Below, piece after piece: positions 1,544-13,315 of a stretch of 64,000 bases of DNA. The notes under the pieces were generated by a model. That model was not told where the DNA came from, did not search any database, and worked only from the letters and a program-made list of their open reading frames with translations. The translations under genes and the position numbers were made by a program. The stretch comes from Escherichia coli (lineage in GTDB: Bacteria; Pseudomonadota; Gammaproteobacteria; Enterobacterales; Enterobacteriaceae): NCBI RefSeq assembly GCF_003019035.1, contig NZ_CP027447.1. One strand, written 5' to 3'. The stretch's first letter is position 1. Each line of letters starts with the position of its first letter.

Positions 1544-4171
1544 TTATTCTTCTTCTGGCTCGTCGTCAACGTCCACTTCCGGAGCGATTTCATCGTCCCC
1601 TTCCGCGGCACTGCCGTCGATGGTATCCAGATCTTCCTCGTCAACCGGTTCAGCAACACGTTGCAGACCCACTACGTTTTCATCTTCCGCAGTACGGATG
1701 AGGATCACACCCTGGGTGTTACGGCCCACGATGCTGATTTCTGAAACGCGAGTACGTACCAGCGTACCGGCATCGGTGATCATCATGATCTGGTCGCAGT
1801 CATCTACCTGCACTGCGCCAACCACTAAACCGTTACGTTCGGTAACCTTGATGGAAATAACCCCTTTCGTCGCACGCGACTTGGTTGGGTATTCCGCCAC
1901 TGCGGTACGTTTACCATAACCGTTCTGCGTTGCGGTGAGGATTGCGCCATCACCACGAGGTACGATCAGAGAGACGACTTTATCGCCTTCGCCTAAACGA
2001 ATACCGCGAACACCGGTGGTGTTGCAGCCCATCGCACGGACAGAAGACTCTTTAAAGCGCACCACTTTACCTTCAGCGGAGAACAGCATTACTTCATCTT
2101 CGCCACTGGTCAGGTCAACGCCGATCAGCTCATCGCCTTCAACCAGTTTGATCGCCACTTTACCGGCAGTACGCAGACGGTTGAATTCGGTGAGGACGGT
2201 TTTCTTCACAGTTCCGTTAGCGGTCGCCATGAAGACTTTCACGCCTTCTTCAAACTCGGTCACTGGCAGGATCGCAGTGATACGTTCGTCTTGCTCCAGC
2301 GGCAGCAGGTTGACGATCGGACGACCGCGCGCGCCACGAGTAGCTTCTGGCAACTGGTAGACCTTCATCGAATAGACGCGACCACGGCTGGAGAAGCACA
2401 GAATATGGTCGTGGGTATTCGCCACCAGCAGTCGGTCGATAAAGTCTTCTTCTTTAATACGTGCGGCAGATTTACCTTTACCGCCACGACGCTGCGCTTC
2501 GTATTCAGAAAGCGGCTGATACTTCACGTAGCCCTGGTGAGAGAGCGTCACGACCACATCTTCCTGGGTGATCAGATCTTCCAGGTTGATGTCTGCGCTG
2601 TTGGCGGTGATTTCAGTACGACGTTTGTCACCGAACTGTTCACGAACCAGCTCCAGCTCTTCGCGGATCACTTCCATCAGACGATCGGCGCTACCAAGAA
2701 TACGCAACAGTTCCGCGATCTGATCCAGCAGCTCTTTGTATTCGTCGAGCAGTTTTTCGTGCTCAAGGCCGGTCAGTTTCTGCAGACGCAGATCCAGAAT
2801 CGCCTGAGCTTGCTGTTCGGTCAGGTAGTACAGACCATCGCGCACGCCGAACTCTGGCTCCAGCCATTCCGGACGCGCAGCATCGTCGCCAGCACGTTCC
2901 AGCATCGCGGCAACGTTGCCCAGCTGCCACGGATTAGCAACCAGCGCGGTTTTCGCTTCTGCAGGCGTCGGCGCATGACGGATCAGTTCGATGATCGGGT
3001 CAATGTTCGCCAGCGCCACGGCTAATGCTTCAAGGATATGAGCACGATCGCGAGCTTTACGCAGTTCGAAAATAGTACGACGGGTCACCACTTCACGGCG
3101 GTGACGAACAAACGCCGCGATGATGTCTTTCAGGTTCATGATCTTCGGCTGACCATGGTGCAATGCCACCATGTTAATACCGAAAGAAACCTGCAACTGG
3201 GTCTGGGAGTAGAGGTTGTTGAGCACCACTTCACCGACCGCATCGCGTTTCACTTCAATCACGATGCGCATACCGTCTTTGTCAGACTCGTCACGCAGCG
3301 CGCTGATACCTTCCACGCGTTTTTCTTTTACCAGTTCCGCAATCTTCTCGATCAGGCGCGCTTTGTTCACCTGATACGGAATTTCATGGACGATAATGGT
3401 TTCACGTCCGGTTTTGGCGTCAACTTCCACTTCAGCACGGGCGCGGATATATACCTTGCCGCGACCGGTACGGTAAGCTTCTTCAATACCGCGACGACCA
3501 TTAATGATTGCCGCCGTCGGGAAGTCCGGCCCAGGAATGTGTTCCATCAGCCCTTCAATGCTGATGTCTTCATCATCGATATACGCCAGACAACCGTTGA
3601 TAACTTCCGTCAGGTTGTGCGGCGGGATGTTGGTTGCCATACCTACGGCGATACCGGAGGAACCGTTCACCAGCAGGTTAGGAATTTTGGTTGGCATGAC
3701 GTCCGGAATTTTTTCCGTGCCGTCATAGTTATCAACGAAATCGACCGTCTCTTTTTCGAGATCGGCCATCAGTTCATGGGCAATTTTCGCCAGACGGATT
3801 TCCGTATAACGCATTGCCGCCGCAGAGTCGCCGTCGATGGAACCGAAGTTACCCTGACCGTCTACCAGCATGTAACGCAGCGAGAATGGCTGCGCCATAC
3901 GGACGATCGTGTCATAAACCGCCGAGTCACCATGGGGATGGTATTTACCGATTACGTCACCAACGACACGGGCAGATTTTTTATAGGCTTTGTTCCAGTC
4001 ATTGCCTAGTACGTTCATGGCGTAAAGTACGCGACGGTGTACCGGCTTCAGGCCATCTCGGACATCCGGCAGCGCACGGCCAACAATGACCGACATCGCA
4101 TAATCCAGATAGGAGCTCTTCAGCTCTTCCTCAATGTTGACCGGTGTAATTTCTCTCGCAAGGTCGCTCAT
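1544..4171 (-). CDS. gyrA: DNA gyrase subunit A
   Basis: 875-aa ORF with the canonical E. coli GyrA sequence ([47 protein letters not shown]; active-site region; acidic C-terminal tail). QRDR reads [11 protein letters not shown], i.e. Ser83 and Asp87. Confidence 0.97.
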
Positions 4172-4384
4172 CTAACCGCTATCCCTCTACTGTATCCCGG
4201 ATTCAAAGGTCGGAGATTATAACACAATCGCTTGCGGACGGGTAAACGTAATGCAGGCTTCCGGGCGCTGTAGATCTACTGCGTTTTACCCCACCGCCAG
4301 CACACATCGCGCTGGCGGTGAACGACAAAGGAACAAAGACCGCAACACGCTTCCTGTGCCTCAATAAACACCAGAAATAATGGC

Positions 4385-4548
4385 TATACTCGTCATACTT
4401 CAAGTTGCATGTGCTGCGTCTGCGGGTTATTCGGCCCATCCATGGGCCTCACCCCTTACGGGGCCGCTGCAAGCAGCGTTCAAATCCGCTCCATGCGGAT
4501 TTGTCGCTCACCCCAGTCACTTACTTATGTAAGCTCCTTGGGATTCAC
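4385..4548. repeat. ERIC (enterobacterial repetitive intergenic consensus / IRU) element
   Basis: Both classic ERIC ends are present: actcgtcatacttcaagttgcatgtgctgcg at the left, and cgctcaccccagtcacttacttatgtaagctccttgggattcac at the right. The right end contains the complements of the standard ERIC2 and ERIC1R primer sequences. It is intergenic, between the gyrA promoter region and the island. Confidence 0.8.
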
Positions 4549-4599
4549 TCGCTTGTCGCCTTCCTGCAACTCGAATTATTTAGAGTATATAAATCGCCG

Positions 4600-5802
4600 T
4601 TATTTGATCACATAGGCAAGATATTGTTGTACGATTTCATCGTTTAATTCCTGACCAAGCCCAGGCAACTCTGGCGCGACATAATAGCCATTCTCGGGTT
4701 GATAATCGTAAGTACAAAGTTCCCGAATACATGCTTTCATCGCATTGGTATGATGTTCATGAATAATAAAGTTAGGTATTGCAGTTTCCATATGCAGCGC
4801 CGCTACTGTTGAAACAGGCCCGCCACAAACATGTACCTGAACGGTTGTGTCATATATATTGGCATAATCACAAATTTTCTTTCCCTCTGTAATGCCACCA
4901 CAAAGACACAAATCAGGTTGAGCTACCGCAATTGATTGTTTTTCCAGTAAATCACGATATCCCCAGCGAGTATAAGAACGCTCACCTGTTGCTATCGGAA
5001 TCGATGTTGAACGGGCAACTTTCTGCATATTATCCGAATTTAATGGATGAATTGGCTCCTCATAGAGAAAAATACGATATTTCTCTATTGCTTTGGCAAA
5101 CTGGATCGCTGAATTTGTTCCTAGAAGAGAATGAATCTCTACAATAATATCAGCATCGTCGCCCATTGCTTCACGCATAGCGGCAATTCTTGTCTCGCCC
5201 ATTTTTAATTGTTCGGCCAGTAATAAGCCAGAGTAATTTCTATTTTTGTTCTGAAAGACACAATCGCCGCCATGCAGATCGATTTCAAGCGGATCAACTT
5301 TTATCGCATTATAACCTTCTGCAATAGCGGCACGCGCTGCCTCTGCATACTCTTCAGGCGTTACTAATATTTGCCTTTTTTCGCCCCAACCAAATTGTAA
5401 CTGACTGGCGTAAGTTCTCAATTTATCGTTAGTCTTTCCCCCCAGTAGTTGATAAACCGGCACGTTTAAATATTTACCTTTAATATCCCATAAGGCAATA
5501 TCAATAGCGCTCATACCTGCGTAAAAAACATTACCACCGCCCATTCCCCAAAATGTTTTCCTGAAGAGGAATTCCCAAATCTTCTCAATGTTCAACGGAT
5601 CTTCACCAATGATGAGAGGGGCTAAATCTCTGATAATACCAACACCAGATTTTGCACCTGCGCCATAGGCTAATCCTACTTCGCCAACACCACTTATTCC
5701 AGCATCGGTATTAACCCGAATAAGTACTGGATTATAAGAGGCCATAGTTTGATCTCTTTTTTTGAGTTCGCAGTCAAAAATTTCTACAGATGTAATCTTC
5801 AT
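4600..5802 (-). CDS. Enolase-superfamily acid-sugar dehydratase (mandelate racemase/muconate lactonizing enzyme fold; D-galactonate/D-mannonate dehydratase-like)
   Basis: ORF 4600-5814; preferred start is the second ATG at 5802 (MKITSVEIF...), which has a GAGG Shine-Dalgarno 6 nt upstream. Motifs such as AIDIALWDIKGKYLNVPVYQLLGG and GERSYTRWGYRDLLEKQSIAVAQPDLCLCGGITEGKKI resemble DgoD/RspA/RhmD-type dehydratases. Substrate cannot be assigned. Confidence 0.8.
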   Translation of the reverse strand: MKITSVEIFDCELKKRDQTMASYNPVLIRVNTDAGISGVGEVGLAYGAGAKSGVGIIRDLAPLIIGEDPLNIEKIWEFLFRKTFWGMGGGNVFYAGMSAIDIALWDIKGKYLNVPVYQLLGGKTNDKLRTYASQLQFGWGEKRQILVTPEEYAEAARAAIAEGYNAIKVDPLEIDLHGGDCVFQNKNRNYSGLLLAEQLKMGETRIAAMREAMGDDADIIVEIHSLLGTNSAIQFAKAIEKYRIFLYEEPIHPLNSDNMQKVARSTSIPIATGERSYTRWGYRDLLEKQSIAVAQPDLCLCGGITEGKKICDYANIYDTTVQVHVCGGPVSTVAALHMETAIPNFIIHEHHTNAMKACIRELCTYDYQPENGYYVAPELPGLGQELNDEIVQQYLAYVIK

Positions 5803-5814
5803 AAATAACCTCAT

Positions 5815-7143
5815 TTATTTAGCATGTGAAATAACATTGTCTTTCTGGGCGTTATCTTTTTTATTATCAATTTTCATTGATAACAAAATAGCTACGGCGA
5901 TAAAGCAAAGAATCGCCTCAACAATAAATATCCCCGTGGCTCCATAATGTGTAGAAACATAGCCAAGTGATTTATTGATCAGAAAACCACCCAAACTTGA
6001 ACAAGAGTTAATAAACGCAATACTGATTGCCAGGCCTGATGGTGAAAGTAAAGCTGAGGGTAAAGCCCAGTACGGACCGTAATAACTGAGAATGCCTACA
6101 CCGTATAATGTTAATCCCATCATGCGCAGCGTCATCGAAGGTACAAGTGCGATCATTAAAAAACCGCAACCTGCAACCAACATCGGTAGTGCGGCATGCC
6201 ATTTCCTTTCATTCTTTTTATCGGAATGCCATCCCCATAATGGCATACTGAACATCGCGAAAATAAACGGAATACTCATAATCAAACCGACATCGGTATC
6301 TGTGAAATCCGATGAAAATCCTTTAACCAACCCCGGTAACCAGTAATTTGCCGCCAACGCCGCTGCCTGAATAAACATATAAGCAAATGAGAGTTGTAGT
6401 AATACTGGATTTTTAATGATTGACAGAAAAGATGCATTTGTATTTTTATTTAATGCTGCGGCTTTTTCGTTATCAGAATTAAGTTTATCGACCAATGCGG
6501 TGACTTGCGATGGTGTAAGCCAGCGGGCTTTTTCCGGACGATCTGGCAGTAAATAAAAGGTCAGCGCCCCCAATAACACCGTAGGAATGCCTTCAATAGC
6601 AAAAAGCCAGCGCCATCCTTCATAGTTACCGGTATTCATATGTTCAATAATCCAACCAGACATTGGTGCCGCCAGCACAGATGCAACTGCGATTGATAAC
6701 ATAAAAAAGCTATTCACTTTTCCACGTTCACGCGCCGGGAACCAACATGCCAGGTAGTAAACCATGCCAGGGAAAAAACCCGCTTCAAATATTCCCAAAA
6801 AGACCCGAGCGAGCAATATATGCTGGGTGTCTTTGGCAAAGAAAATTAACGTTGTTACTGTTCCCCAACCAACAATAATGGCGCTAATCCATTTTCTTGC
6901 ACCTAACTTTTGCAATCCAATACTGCTCGGAATTTGAAAAATCAAATAGGACACAAAAAATATTGAAGATATATTAGCAAAATCCTCTGGAGTAATACCA
7001 AGGGATTCATTCATGCGTAAAGCGGCAAATCCGATGTTAACACGATCCATATAGTTAAAAAAATACAGAATAAATGCTAACGGAATAATCTTCCTTTTCA
7101 CAATAGAAATGGCGTCATACAAATCTTTCTGAGGACTGCTCAT
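5815..7143 (-). CDS. MFS transporter, anion:cation symporter (ACS) family, putative sugar-acid permease
   Basis: 442-aa ORF with good SD (AAAGGTGA). Hydrophobic multi-helix protein with ACS signature regions ([33 protein letters not shown]) paralogous to RhmT in this window. Its stop abuts the dehydratase start. Confidence 0.85.
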   Translation of the reverse strand: MSSPQKDLYDAISIVKRKIIPLAFILYFFNYMDRVNIGFAALRMNESLGITPEDFANISSIFFVSYLIFQIPSSIGLQKLGARKWISAIIVGWGTVTTLIFFAKDTQHILLARVFLGIFEAGFFPGMVYYLACWFPARERGKVNSFFMLSIAVASVLAAPMSGWIIEHMNTGNYEGWRWLFAIEGIPTVLLGALTFYLLPDRPEKARWLTPSQVTALVDKLNSDNEKAAALNKNTNASFLSIIKNPVLLQLSFAYMFIQAAALAANYWLPGLVKGFSSDFTDTDVGLIMSIPFIFAMFSMPLWGWHSDKKNERKWHAALPMLVAGCGFLMIALVPSMTLRMMGLTLYGVGILSYYGPYWALPSALLSPSGLAISIAFINSCSSLGGFLINKSLGYVSTHYGATGIFIVEAILCFIAVAILLSMKIDNKKDNAQKDNVISHAK

Positions 7144-7233
7144 TTTGTTTCACCTTTTGTGCTTCAATGAATAAGAGTACTGCCCGAAGTGGATATTACG
7201 TAAAAAATAATCCAGTTCAAAAGGTGATGTGTT

Positions 7234-7249
7234 ATATCTGATATATCAG
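7234..7249. promoter_or_regulatory. Candidate operator 1 in the divergent MFS/GntR promoter region; contains the perfect 12-bp palindrome CTGATATATCAG
   Basis: atatctgatatat at 7234-7246, with the palindrome ctgatatatcag at 7238-7249. The same 13-mer recurs at 7304-7316. Located between divergent genes, one of which is a GntR regulator. Confidence 0.5.
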
Positions 7250-7303
7250 CTTGATCATTGATTGAAACACTAAGCTACAACAATAAGATATATCATTTTT
7301 GTC

Positions 7304-7316
7304 ATATCTGATATAT
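7304..7316. promoter_or_regulatory. Candidate operator 2 (second copy of ATATCTGATATAT)
   Basis: Exact 13-bp direct repeat of the 7234-7246 motif, 70 bp downstream and about 65 bp upstream of the GntR start codon. Confidence 0.45.
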
Positions 7317-7380
7317 TAGACACCTTCATTGATAAAATGATTACATATAATGGACCAGCAGCTTAATAAGGGGCAAAGGA

Positions 7381-8079
7381 ATGAGAGATAAAGCGAAACG
7401 TGACTTAAGTCACATATCAATTGAGATACCAAAATCCGTAACACAGGTCATCAAAGAAAAAATCAGGGATATGATAATTCATGGCGATCTCAGTCTTGGG
7501 CAACCGATAAGTGAAAATGAACTTTCGAATATCCTGGCGGTAAGTAAAACACCTATTCGTGAAGCTTTTATTTTACTTAGTCACAATGAAAATCTGATCA
7601 ATATCATTCCACGCAGCGGAACATTCGTTTTTTCCGTAACAGATAAAGATATTAATGACCTCATAAAAATGCGAGTAATTCTGGAGCAGGGTGCAATTCG
7701 TGAAGCAATGGAAAAGAATGAAAACAATGTCATCATTGAATTAAGTAGCATACTATCAAAATCAGCAAAAATTAATGCCGAGCGTGATACTCAGGCTTAT
7801 CTTAAATTGGATCATGATTTTCATTATGTGTTTGTTAAATACGCTGCTAATAAATACATCTCTCAGGCACACCAATTGATATCCGCACGTTTACTTGCTA
7901 TTCGTTATCGACTGGATTTCACTACGGAATATATTACCAATTCAAATCGTGGCCATGCCACTATTTTAGATATGCTAAAAAATAATAACGTTGAAGGTGT
8001 TTGTAATTTTATTACTCATCACGTAAGTAGTGGATTTACCGAGCGTGCACGAAAAATTCTCTCGTTATCTACACAGTAA
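7381..8079 (+). CDS. GntR-family (FadR/FCD-type) transcriptional regulator
   Basis: 232-aa ORF with an N-terminal winged-HTH pattern (LSLGQPISENELSNILAVSKTPIREAF) and a helical C-terminal ligand-binding-like domain. Divergent to the transporter-dehydratase pair; AGGGG SD 8 nt upstream. Confidence 0.8.
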   Translation: MRDKAKRDLSHISIEIPKSVTQVIKEKIRDMIIHGDLSLGQPISENELSNILAVSKTPIREAFILLSHNENLINIIPRSGTFVFSVTDKDINDLIKMRVILEQGAIREAMEKNENNVIIELSSILSKSAKINAERDTQAYLKLDHDFHYVFVKYAANKYISQAHQLISARLLAIRYRLDFTTEYITNSNRGHATILDMLKNNNVEGVCNFITHHVSSGFTERARKILSLSTQ

Positions 8080-8156
8080 AATGTGAATGAGTTTATAACA
8101 CTGGCACTTTTCACCTGCTATACTGCCCGACAACCTTTATAGACTCTTATGTAACA

Positions 8157-8879
8157 ATGAACACTGAAAATCTCCTTAAAAACAATAACGTAGACCACGA
8201 AGAGATCGCTAAATTTGAAGCCGTCGCCTCCCGCTGGTGGGATCTTGAAGGTGAGTTCAAACCGCTGCACCGCATTAACCCGCTGCGTCTGGGCTATATT
8301 GCCGAGCGTGCTGGCGGTTTATTTGGCAAAAAGGTGCTCGATGTCGGTTGTGGCGGCGGCATTCTGGCCGAGAGTATGGCGCGCGAAGGCGCGACGGTGA
8401 CCGGTCTGGATATGGGCTTTGAGCCATTGCAGGTGGCAAAGTTGCACGCGCTGGAAAGTGGCATTCAGGTAGAGTACGTGCAGGAAACCGTGGAAGAGCA
8501 CGCGGCAAAACATGCCGGGCAGTATGACGTGGTGACCTGCATGGAGATGCTGGAGCACGTGCCCGATCCGCAGTCAGTGGTCAGAGCCTGTGCGCAACTG
8601 GTGAAACCGGGCGGCGATGTCTTTTTCTCGACGCTTAACCGCAACGGCAAGTCATGGCTGATGGCGGTAGTCGGCGCAGAATATATTTTGCGCATGGTGC
8701 CTAAAGGTACACATGATGTGAAGAAGTTTATTAAACCGGCAGAATTGCTGGGCTGGGTGGATCAGACAAGCCTTAAAGAGCGGCATATGACTGGGCTGCA
8801 TTACAACCCGATCACTAATTCCTTTAAGCTCGGCCCCGGCGTGGATGTGAACTATATGCTGCATACGCAGAATAAGTGA
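8157..8879 (+). CDS. ubiG: Bifunctional 3-demethylubiquinone-9 3-O-methyltransferase / 2-polyprenyl-6-hydroxyphenol methylase
   Basis: 240-aa ORF with SAM-binding motif [13 protein letters not shown] and an otherwise UbiG-typical sequence ([46 protein letters not shown]). Confidence 0.95.
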
Positions 8880-8914
8880 GGTTGTTGTTTGGATTCAGCC
8901 GACGACCGAGCCAA

Positions 8915-8996
8915 GCCTGATGCGACGCTTGCCGCGTCTTATCAGGCCTACAAATGCTCCCGTAGGCCAGATAAGGCGTTTACGCCGCATCCGGCA
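8915..8996. repeat. REP/BIME element (two inverted REP units)
   Basis: gcctgatgcgacgcttgccgcgtcttatcaggcctac followed by the inverted unit gtaggccagataaggcgtttacgccgcatccggca, lying between convergent ubiG and yfaL. Confidence 0.8.
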
Positions 8997-9017
8997 ACAG
9001 TGCCGGTCAGACAGCGA

Positions 9018-12782: not shown

Positions 12783-13315
12783 ATTAATCTGACCATCATT
12801 TTCTATAAGACGGCATATTTAATCGCATTATACGATATGGGTTATTTTTCTTTTGTAAATTGTTCAACCCGGTGCAATGGCTATTTTGTTATTATTTCAT
12901 GAATAATATCAGTGCGTCATAATTCAAGTTAATCACCTTAAGGGATATCAGTTATGTTTAAACTGAATTAAAGTAATGAATAATTTTCTTATAATATAAG
13001 GTAAATTAACAAAATGGCTTCGCATTTAACAACAACCGAAGAGAAAACAACCATTTCGACATCAACAATCGCTTACATTCGCTTATATATTGACCATAAC
13101 TGATACATCAGATTATGTGATGACTCGTGCTTAGATCAATTTTTGCAATCATTAGCCAAAAGATTAATAAACCATCTATATCAATTTATCTAACCTATTC
13201 TTCCGTTCAAGAAATCGCCGAACAGTTATTTTTAACAAATTTTTCTCTTCCCATTGACTTTCCCGGACACCTTGTCTGACCTAAGGTGCGCGAAAGCCAC
13301 TTTTTCCTTCCTGAG

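Follow-up and report, generated by a model that had tools for sequence, protein, structure and literature searches.

The described systems closest to the locus considered here are those of DgoR, LldR and FadR, together with the double-site divergons of the FadR and HutC subfamilies. DgoR acts through inverted-repeat operators and is induced by an acid sugar; in the dgo operon, which opens with dgoR itself, the operators are of the TTGTA(G/C)TACA(A/T) type and lie across the promoter. At lldPRD the operators of LldR (AATTGGT...ACCAATT) flank the promoter at approximately -100 and +30, and LldR is both repressor and activator. Sites of the FadR subfamily are A/T-rich palindromes with TKGT/ACMA boxes (PMC4494728). 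The FadR operator O_B of fadBA is one such site, with the sequence ATCTGGTACGACCAGAT in E. coli and ATCTGATACGACCAGAT in Salmonella Typhi (PMC4494728, supplement). Where arginine occupies the position of FadR Arg35, G is preferred in the site and A or T avoided (PMC4494728). For double-site divergons, Suvorova et al. (2015, PMC4494728) describe a class in which each of the two sites acts on the operon closer to it.

The pair of regulator and putative operators reported here is previously undescribed; it is an ordinary kind of bacterial switch with a mildly non-canonical half-site. It belongs to a three-gene island that is flanked, in the window (the whole 64-kb stretch of E. coli chromosome that was analysed), by gyrA on the minus strand (1544-4171) and ubiG on the plus strand (8157-8879). 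The genes of the island are as follows:

5815-7143, minus strand: MFS transporter of 442 aa, gene 1 of the divergent operon.
4600-5814, minus strand: acid-sugar dehydratase of the enolase superfamily (MR/MLE), gene 2 of the operon.
7381-8079, plus strand: GntR-family regulator of the FadR/FCD subfamily, 232 aa, divergent from the operon and the presumed binder of both sites described below.

Of 5426 complete E. coli genomes, 140 (approximately 2.6%) carry the island, each as a single chromosomal copy, and Salmonella enterica carries the same three genes at the same gyrA–ubiG site. Positions 4400-9000 of the window are 100% identical to E. coli strain SCU-301. Most other island-positive strains have about 71 extra bp in the spacer between gyrA and the dehydratase gene (approximately 4172-4600), and in some the island is decaying: an IS5 element sits within the dehydratase gene of TH9F11 and the MFS gene of MS 21-1 is frameshifted.

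The dehydratase is near-identical to a protein of solved structure (PDB 2GL5/4E6M) deposited as a 'putative dehydratase protein', its Salmonella counterpart being STM2273. Its score of 248.9 bits falls below the galactonate dehydratase cut-off of 311. The transporter resembles the D-galactonate transporter and 4-hydroxyphenylacetate permease subfamilies, with scores below both cut-offs. A literature search on STM2273-2275, the PDB codes and the motif strings returned nothing on the regulator, the operator or the function of the dehydratase, and no reports of binding, expression or transcription starts for the locus; STM2275, the regulator of Salmonella LT2, did not appear in the portion of the supplementary tables of PMC4494728 that was covered. 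The island shares with dgo the combination of a FadR-subfamily regulator and an operon for an MFS acid-sugar transporter and an enolase-superfamily dehydratase. Unlike dgoR, the regulator gene is divergent from the operon, the motif is a different one, and the transporter-proximal site lies upstream of the -35 element.

The intergenic region spans 7144-7380, from the MFS start codon (7143, minus strand) to the regulator ATG (7381), and at 237 bp its length is that given in the preliminary description; its G+C content is 32%. That description had also placed here two exact copies of a 13-mer 70 bp apart, the first with a perfect 12-bp palindrome. Both features are present: ATATCTGATATAT occurs on the plus strand at 7234-7246 and 7304-7316 (their starts 70 bp apart), and the first of them overlaps a perfect 12-bp palindrome, CTGATATATCAG, at 7238-7249. 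The similarity is wider than the 13-mer, extending over 20 nt at 90% identity (7230-7249, TGTTATATCTGATATATCAG, versus 7300-7319, TGTCATATCTGATATATTAG).

One explanation for such a repeat is that it is a product of chance or of duplication in low-complexity A+T-rich DNA, and is devoid of function. The motif is mostly ATAT, and 11% of 5000 dinucleotide-preserving shuffles of the spacer yielded a perfect palindrome of 12 bp or more; in DNA this rich in A+T the palindrome alone is therefore unremarkable. The unusual feature is the repeat. Exact direct repeats of 13 nt or more appeared in 0.14% of the 5000 shuffles (P ~0.0014), which argues against chance.

The shared 13-mer proves to be the left arm and centre of an imperfect dyad of 16-20 bp with the consensus ATATCTGATATATCAGATAT (the cross-species consensus, ATCTGATATATCAGAT, is a perfect palindrome). 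It is this dyad, and not the 13-mer, that is the functional unit. The two putative operators, neither of which has a strand, are:

Core 7236-7251 (16 bp, ATCTGATATATCAGCT), extended dyad 7234-7253, centre 7243.5: candidate operator site 1, transporter-proximal, with the first 13-mer and CTGATATATCAG inside it.
Core 7306-7321 (16 bp, ATCTGATATATTAGAC), extended dyad 7304-7323, centre 7313.5: candidate operator site 2, regulator-proximal, with the second 13-mer inside it.

Within the 16-bp core, 14 of 16 positions pair in site 1 and 12 of 16 in site 2. The claim that the 13-mers themselves are twin palindromes thus needs amendment: both copies are indeed dyad-symmetric, the second imperfectly so, but the 13-mer covers only part of the symmetric element. 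Both sites have the symmetry of a dimer-type operator, namely two inverted half-sites within an A/T-rich palindrome of 15-20 bp. The boxes are TGAT and ATCA, separated by 2 nt with AT at the centre, and the GT...AC pair is found in neither E. coli site; the sites accordingly depart from the canonical GntR core NyGT-N(2-3)-ACNy (TKGT/ACMA boxes; PMC4494728). Like the E. coli dyads, O_B is an A/T-flanked palindrome for a dimer of a FadR-subfamily GntR protein; the two share the outer arms ATCTG...CAGAT, and in Salmonella Typhi one half-site of O_B is TGAT. Unlike them, O_B is 17 bp rather than 16 bp long, has TGGT/ACCA boxes and has 3 nt between GT and AC. The island regulator, for its part, is an FCD-type protein distantly related to FadR and lacks arginine at the Arg35 position.

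Orthologous islands were recovered via homologues of the regulator. Salmonella, with a regulator 87% identical to that of E. coli, has ATCTGATATATCAGCA and ATCTGATATATTAGAT; an enterobacterial-type island in a different genomic context (L005; regulator 72% identical) has GTCTAATATGTCAGAG and ATCTAATATATTAGAT. In both the sites are 70 bp apart, as in E. coli. When E. coli, Salmonella and L005 are aligned together, all three agree at 69% of positions in the core of site 1 and 88% in that of site 2, compared with 20% in the 50 bp between the sites and 25% in the regulator-proximal 57 bp. Taken pairwise, site 1 of E. coli is 94% identical to that of Salmonella and 69% identical to that of L005, against 60% and 30%, respectively, for the inter-site DNA. 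On these alignments both dyads are phylogenetic footprints.

Variation within E. coli is similarly confined. Among seven alleles (96-100% identical) the 13-mers are invariant, and the only polymorphism near site 1 is 7252 T/C, just outside the core. In site 2 the only polymorphism is 7321 C/T, at the outer position of the core, where T restores the consensus GAT arm. A third, partial copy of the motif (GATATATCA at 7288-7296) was considered as an operator and set aside: it is polymorphic among the E. coli alleles, is absent from Salmonella and scores only 11.7 bits against the matrix described below.

Beyond the enteric bacteria the motif recurs in company with the regulator. In Gilliamella apis (Orbaceae), which has a regulator with 42% identity and a transporter from another family, the spacer between the dehydratase and regulator genes contains ATATCTGATATATTAGATAT, a nearly perfect 20-bp palindrome, with AAATCTGATATATTATTTTT 85 bp away; the dyad cores are ATCTGATATATTAGAT and ATCTGATATATTATTT. 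In Caballeronia pedi and Burkholderia peredens (Burkholderiaceae) the regulator is approximately 40% identical and its gene is convergent with that of the dehydratase. Here a single site is found upstream of the MFS–dehydratase operon, GATCTGATGTATCAGATATC in C. pedi and its close variant GACTGATGTATCAGATATC in B. peredens, and a search upstream of the C. pedi regulator gene found no site. One site at the operon and none before the C. pedi regulator gene is the arrangement to be expected were site 1 devoted to the operon and site 2 to autoregulation. The Burkholderiaceae loci came from a regulator-alignment search of genome contigs that returned only distant relatives, Salmonella and Gilliamella being absent from its matches.

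Orthologous islands were where the preliminary description had proposed that the motif be sought, a lack of conservation there counting as refutation; the reading withstands this check, for dyads stand at the same positions in four lineages (Salmonella, L005, Gilliamella and, as a single copy, the Burkholderiaceae). The motif therefore follows the regulator, upstream of orthologous genes, through three proteobacterial families. The orthologous group is small, at 19 clusters with E <= 1e-30 among 1.84 billion representatives. In all relatives sampled, the regulator adjoins an MR/MLE dehydratase, an acid transporter or both; more distant relatives beside TRAP or ABC transporters have weaker look-alikes upstream (L024, L045 and L046). 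Retention of the sites amid inter-site DNA of such low three-way identity, and recurrence of the motif beside regulators that are only 40-42% identical, effectively refute the notion that the repeat is a functionless accident of composition.

To quantify the match, a position weight matrix (PWM) was built from non-E. coli sites only and applied to all 20-mers of the window (approximately 64,000 positions; background -24 +/- 8 bits). Site 2 ranks first, at 26.2 bits, and site 1 second, at 24.6 bits. The third-best match, at 20 bits, is ATAACTGATACATCAGATTA at 13096-13115, in the yfaL–nrdA spacer some 5.8 kb from the regulator. This stretch belongs to the core genome: 4992 of 5426 E. coli genomes have it, among them island-less derivatives of K-12 and B. 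Its palindrome is kept in C600, altered in EC08 and absent from the ubiG–nrdA spacer of Salmonella. On account of its presence in island-less strains and its absence from Salmonella we do not regard it as part of the GntR system, and it may be a site for another protein.

The occurrence of this match in strains without the island shows that similar sequence can exist independently of the regulator. Perhaps the dyads are promoter elements or are bound by some other protein – a global regulator such as CRP or one like Cra, or a nucleoid protein – and the GntR protein binds elsewhere. The spacer is very A+T-rich, and TATATT, which is kept in all copies of site 2, would pass for a -10 hexamer. Neither named regulator fits. 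Read as CRP sites (TGTGA-N6-TCACA) the dyads have mismatches at 3 of 10 positions, which is the chance level in the window (205 such matches found, 222 expected). The Cra consensus has 6 nt between its arms; in the dyads, judged by eye, 4 nt separate CTGA from TCAG. Moreover, a site for an unrelated protein would not readily explain why the motif follows regulator orthologues into Orbaceae and Burkholderiaceae despite different flanking genes and genome composition, nor the agreement, set out below, between a residue of the regulator and the bases of the half-site. We consider binding by another protein very improbable.

An element that does resemble a CRP site lies within the regulator gene. 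CGTGACTTAAGTCACA, at 7399-7414 (codons 7-12), differs from the CRP core TGTGA-N6-TCACA at one position; its counterparts are CGTGACTTTAGTCACA in Salmonella and a perfect TGTGACTTTAGTCACA in L005 (5019-5034). The promoter and terminator scan also marks 7399-7414 as terminator-like on the minus strand; the element may reflect either coding constraint or a role at the level of DNA.

The gene adjoining the sites encodes a protein with a GntR winged-helix domain (wHTH; PF00392) and an FCD domain (PF07729), as given by Pfam for near-identical cluster representatives and also by GntR and FCD matches in NCBIfam. Its closest solved structures are FCD-type GntR proteins, TM0439 (3SXY/3FMS) among them. 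In the alignment of homologues the FCD residues D144, H148, H192 and H214 are nearly invariant; these we take to be the Asp/His set that binds metal in FCD domains, and a metal-type set of this kind fits a carboxylate effector. A published study of UxuR and zinc (PMC8092373) may be compared.

In seven of the seven E. coli records inspected, the NCBI pipeline (PGAP) labels the regulator gene a 'frameshifted' pseudogene from about 7337. The 232-aa reading frame from 7381 aligns with its homologues from end to end, and the Salmonella gene call, at 294 aa, starts 189 bp upstream of the homologue-aligned start. We judge the label to be an artefact of an over-long reference start, the 'frameshift' lying in what is probably a non-coding N-terminal extension of the reference. 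Two Salmonella loci (L008 and L009, 5001-5696) fall 189 bp short of the length seen in L003, and their called regulator product has a Pfam match to FCD only. Much of the DNA-binding domain has thus apparently been lost through an in-frame deletion, whereas the operator region is unchanged.

The departure of the half-site from TGGT has a counterpart in a recognition residue of the regulator. In the HTH alignment, the position of FadR Arg35 is occupied by Asn in E. coli, Salmonella and L005, by Glu in Gilliamella and by Ala in the two Burkholderiaceae, and all of these regulators go with TGAT half-sites. The G+C-rich homologues P0014 and P0015 have Arg at this position, and at the P0015 locus CGATATACCA (that is, TGGTATATCG) occurs twice upstream of the MFS gene. 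In L012 the two copies of this 10-mer lie within 5270-5345, separated by about 60 bp; the spacer that holds them, upstream of the MFS gene, is otherwise G+C-rich. The regulator homologue there is 34% identical and has Arg at the FadR Arg35 position, and the repeat is probably a variant operator (TGGTATATCG). These pairings accord with the published preference of Arg for G. The TGAT form coincides with Asn, Glu or Ala in place of the G-contacting Arg, which looks like variant specificity rather than membership of a different family, and the agreement of residue and base is suggestive of the local regulator as the binding protein.

Taken together, the repeat, the dyad symmetry, the cross-lineage conservation and the GntR wHTH and FCD neighbour uphold the preliminary designation of the repeats as candidate GntR operators. 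Assignment to the adjacent regulator is well supported because the dyads are kept amid diverged DNA, follow the regulator and top the matrix scan. From these comparisons of sequence we infer physical binding of the GntR/FCD regulator to both sites as its operators, with a probability of about 0.8.

What binding at these positions might do depends on where transcription begins. Predicted promoters in the spacer are:

7193-7220, minus strand: predicted sigma-70 promoter of the MFS–dehydratase operon, TTGAAC-16-TAATAT, from our own PWM scan; site 1 would be centred at about -57.5.
7323-7351, plus strand: regulator promoter candidate 1, CCTTCA-17-TATAAT (TATAAT at 7346-7351), from the PWM scan; site 2 would lie at about -44.5, abutting the -35 element.
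7262-7289, plus strand: regulator promoter candidate 2, TTGAAA-16-TAAGAT, from the promoter scan; site 2 would lie at +17.5.
Inside site 2, plus strand: regulator promoter candidate 3, with TATATT as its -10 element; site 2 would lie at -10.5.

The transporter promoter was not listed by a separate, stricter consensus scan; among the minus-strand candidates it alone is conserved at the same offset in Salmonella (TTGAAT-16-TAACAT) and L005 (TTGTCT-16-TAACAT). A poly-A tract within it (7202-7207) varies between A6 and A7 among E. coli alleles, taking the promoter spacer from 16 to 17 bp. In Gilliamella (TTGACG-17-TACTAT) and C. pedi (TTGACC-17-TACCGT, identified by eye) the operon-proximal site would be centred at about -51.5 relative to the predicted promoter. 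In E. coli the core of site 1 ends 15 bp upstream of the predicted -35 element and so does not overlap the promoter as steric repression would have it. Site 1 thus appears, on these predictions, to lie consistently just upstream of the -35 element and not over the promoter; simple occlusion is not evident. For the regulator gene, the TATATT candidate scores well in Salmonella, L005 and Gilliamella and poorly in E. coli, but with any of the three predicted promoters site 2 would lie inside or against the footprint of the polymerase, which is compatible with autorepression.

Two further elements of the spacer deserve mention. A perfect 10-nt inverted repeat, TCACCTTTTG at 7150-7159 and CAAAAGGTGA at 7218-7227, would pair the ribosome-binding site (RBS) of the transporter gene with the -35 region if both were transcribed. 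An RNA element was considered and rejected: the fold has z = -2.1 in E. coli and is not kept in Salmonella, and an Rfam search of the spacer gave no family match, although sequestration of the RBS is possible.

Cooperation of the two sites through a DNA loop was considered, given the identical spacing in the three enteric lineages, but is not supported. The separation there of 70 bp (6.7 helical turns) is out of helical phase with the 85 bp of Gilliamella, and this favours one site for each promoter, an arrangement that corresponds to the 'separate sites' class of double-site divergon (PMC4494728). Like those divergons, the island has a regulator gene divergent from a structural operon and two palindromic sites in the spacer; unlike them, its motif departs from the TKGT/ACMA consensus given there. 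With LldR at lldPRD the island shares an FCD-type GntR protein and two separated palindromic operators, one of which, for LldR, is well upstream of the promoter. It differs in that both sites lie upstream of the transporter promoter, 70 bp apart.

The position of site 1 invites a second interpretation of what the regulator does at the transporter promoter. Activation or dual action is known for some FCD-type regulators, such as GlcC and LldR, and also for FadR at fabA. On this interpretation the adjacent regulator still binds the sites and still represses its own gene through site 2, but is an activator, or acts dually, at the transporter promoter, the effector-bound protein contacting RNA polymerase from -51 to -58. 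Consistent with this, a recognisable -35 element occurs just downstream of site 1 in every lineage (TTGAAC, TTGAAT and TTGTCT with the site at -57.5; TTGACG and TTGACC with the site at -51.5), and the predicted -10 elements (TAATAT, TAACAT, TACTAT and TACCGT) are weak. However, promoters that depend on an activator do not usually have -35 elements as good as these; the positions -57.5 and -51.5, themselves predictions, differ from the standard class I and class II positions (-61.5 and -41.5); and FadR-subfamily regulators of catabolic operons are mostly repressors released by effector. We regard activation or dual action as unlikely. Repression relieved by an effector, with autorepression of the regulator gene, is the mode that we favour with moderate confidence, the sign of regulation being one that we infer from the habit of the family and from the predicted promoters.

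Under effector-relieved repression, each imperfect palindrome of 16-20 bp would take one dimer of the regulator, each TCTGATA half-site being contacted by one winged helix-turn-helix. In the absence of inducer both sites would be occupied. Occupancy of site 2 would lead to autorepression of the regulator gene, and site 1, just upstream of the -35 element of the transporter–dehydratase promoter, would control that operon. The effector would be an acid sugar, imported by the MFS transporter and dehydrated by the MR/MLE enzyme, or else its 2-keto-3-deoxy product; on binding the metal-containing FCD domain it would cause the regulator to leave the DNA.

A bolder form of this proposal would hold that the specificity of the whole clade has shifted, such that TGAT is read instead of TGGT by way of Asn, Glu or Ala at the Arg35 position, and that action at -51 to -58 is fixed across enterobacteria, Orbaceae and Burkholderiaceae. 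A site fixed just upstream of the -35 element would imply activation, or interference with the C-terminal domain of the alpha subunit, in place of the usual promoter occlusion. We advance this combined proposal tentatively and think it somewhat doubtful.

In most respects the system is a conventional local switch in an accessory island of approximately 2.6% of complete E. coli genomes and of Salmonella. It is also a natural example of a change from G to A in a FadR-type half-site on loss of the Arg contact, which is useful for rules of specificity and for the design of biosensors. The dehydratase (STM2273, 2GL5/4E6M) is an orphan of structural genomics, and a defined regulator–operator pair offers a direct route to its substrate.
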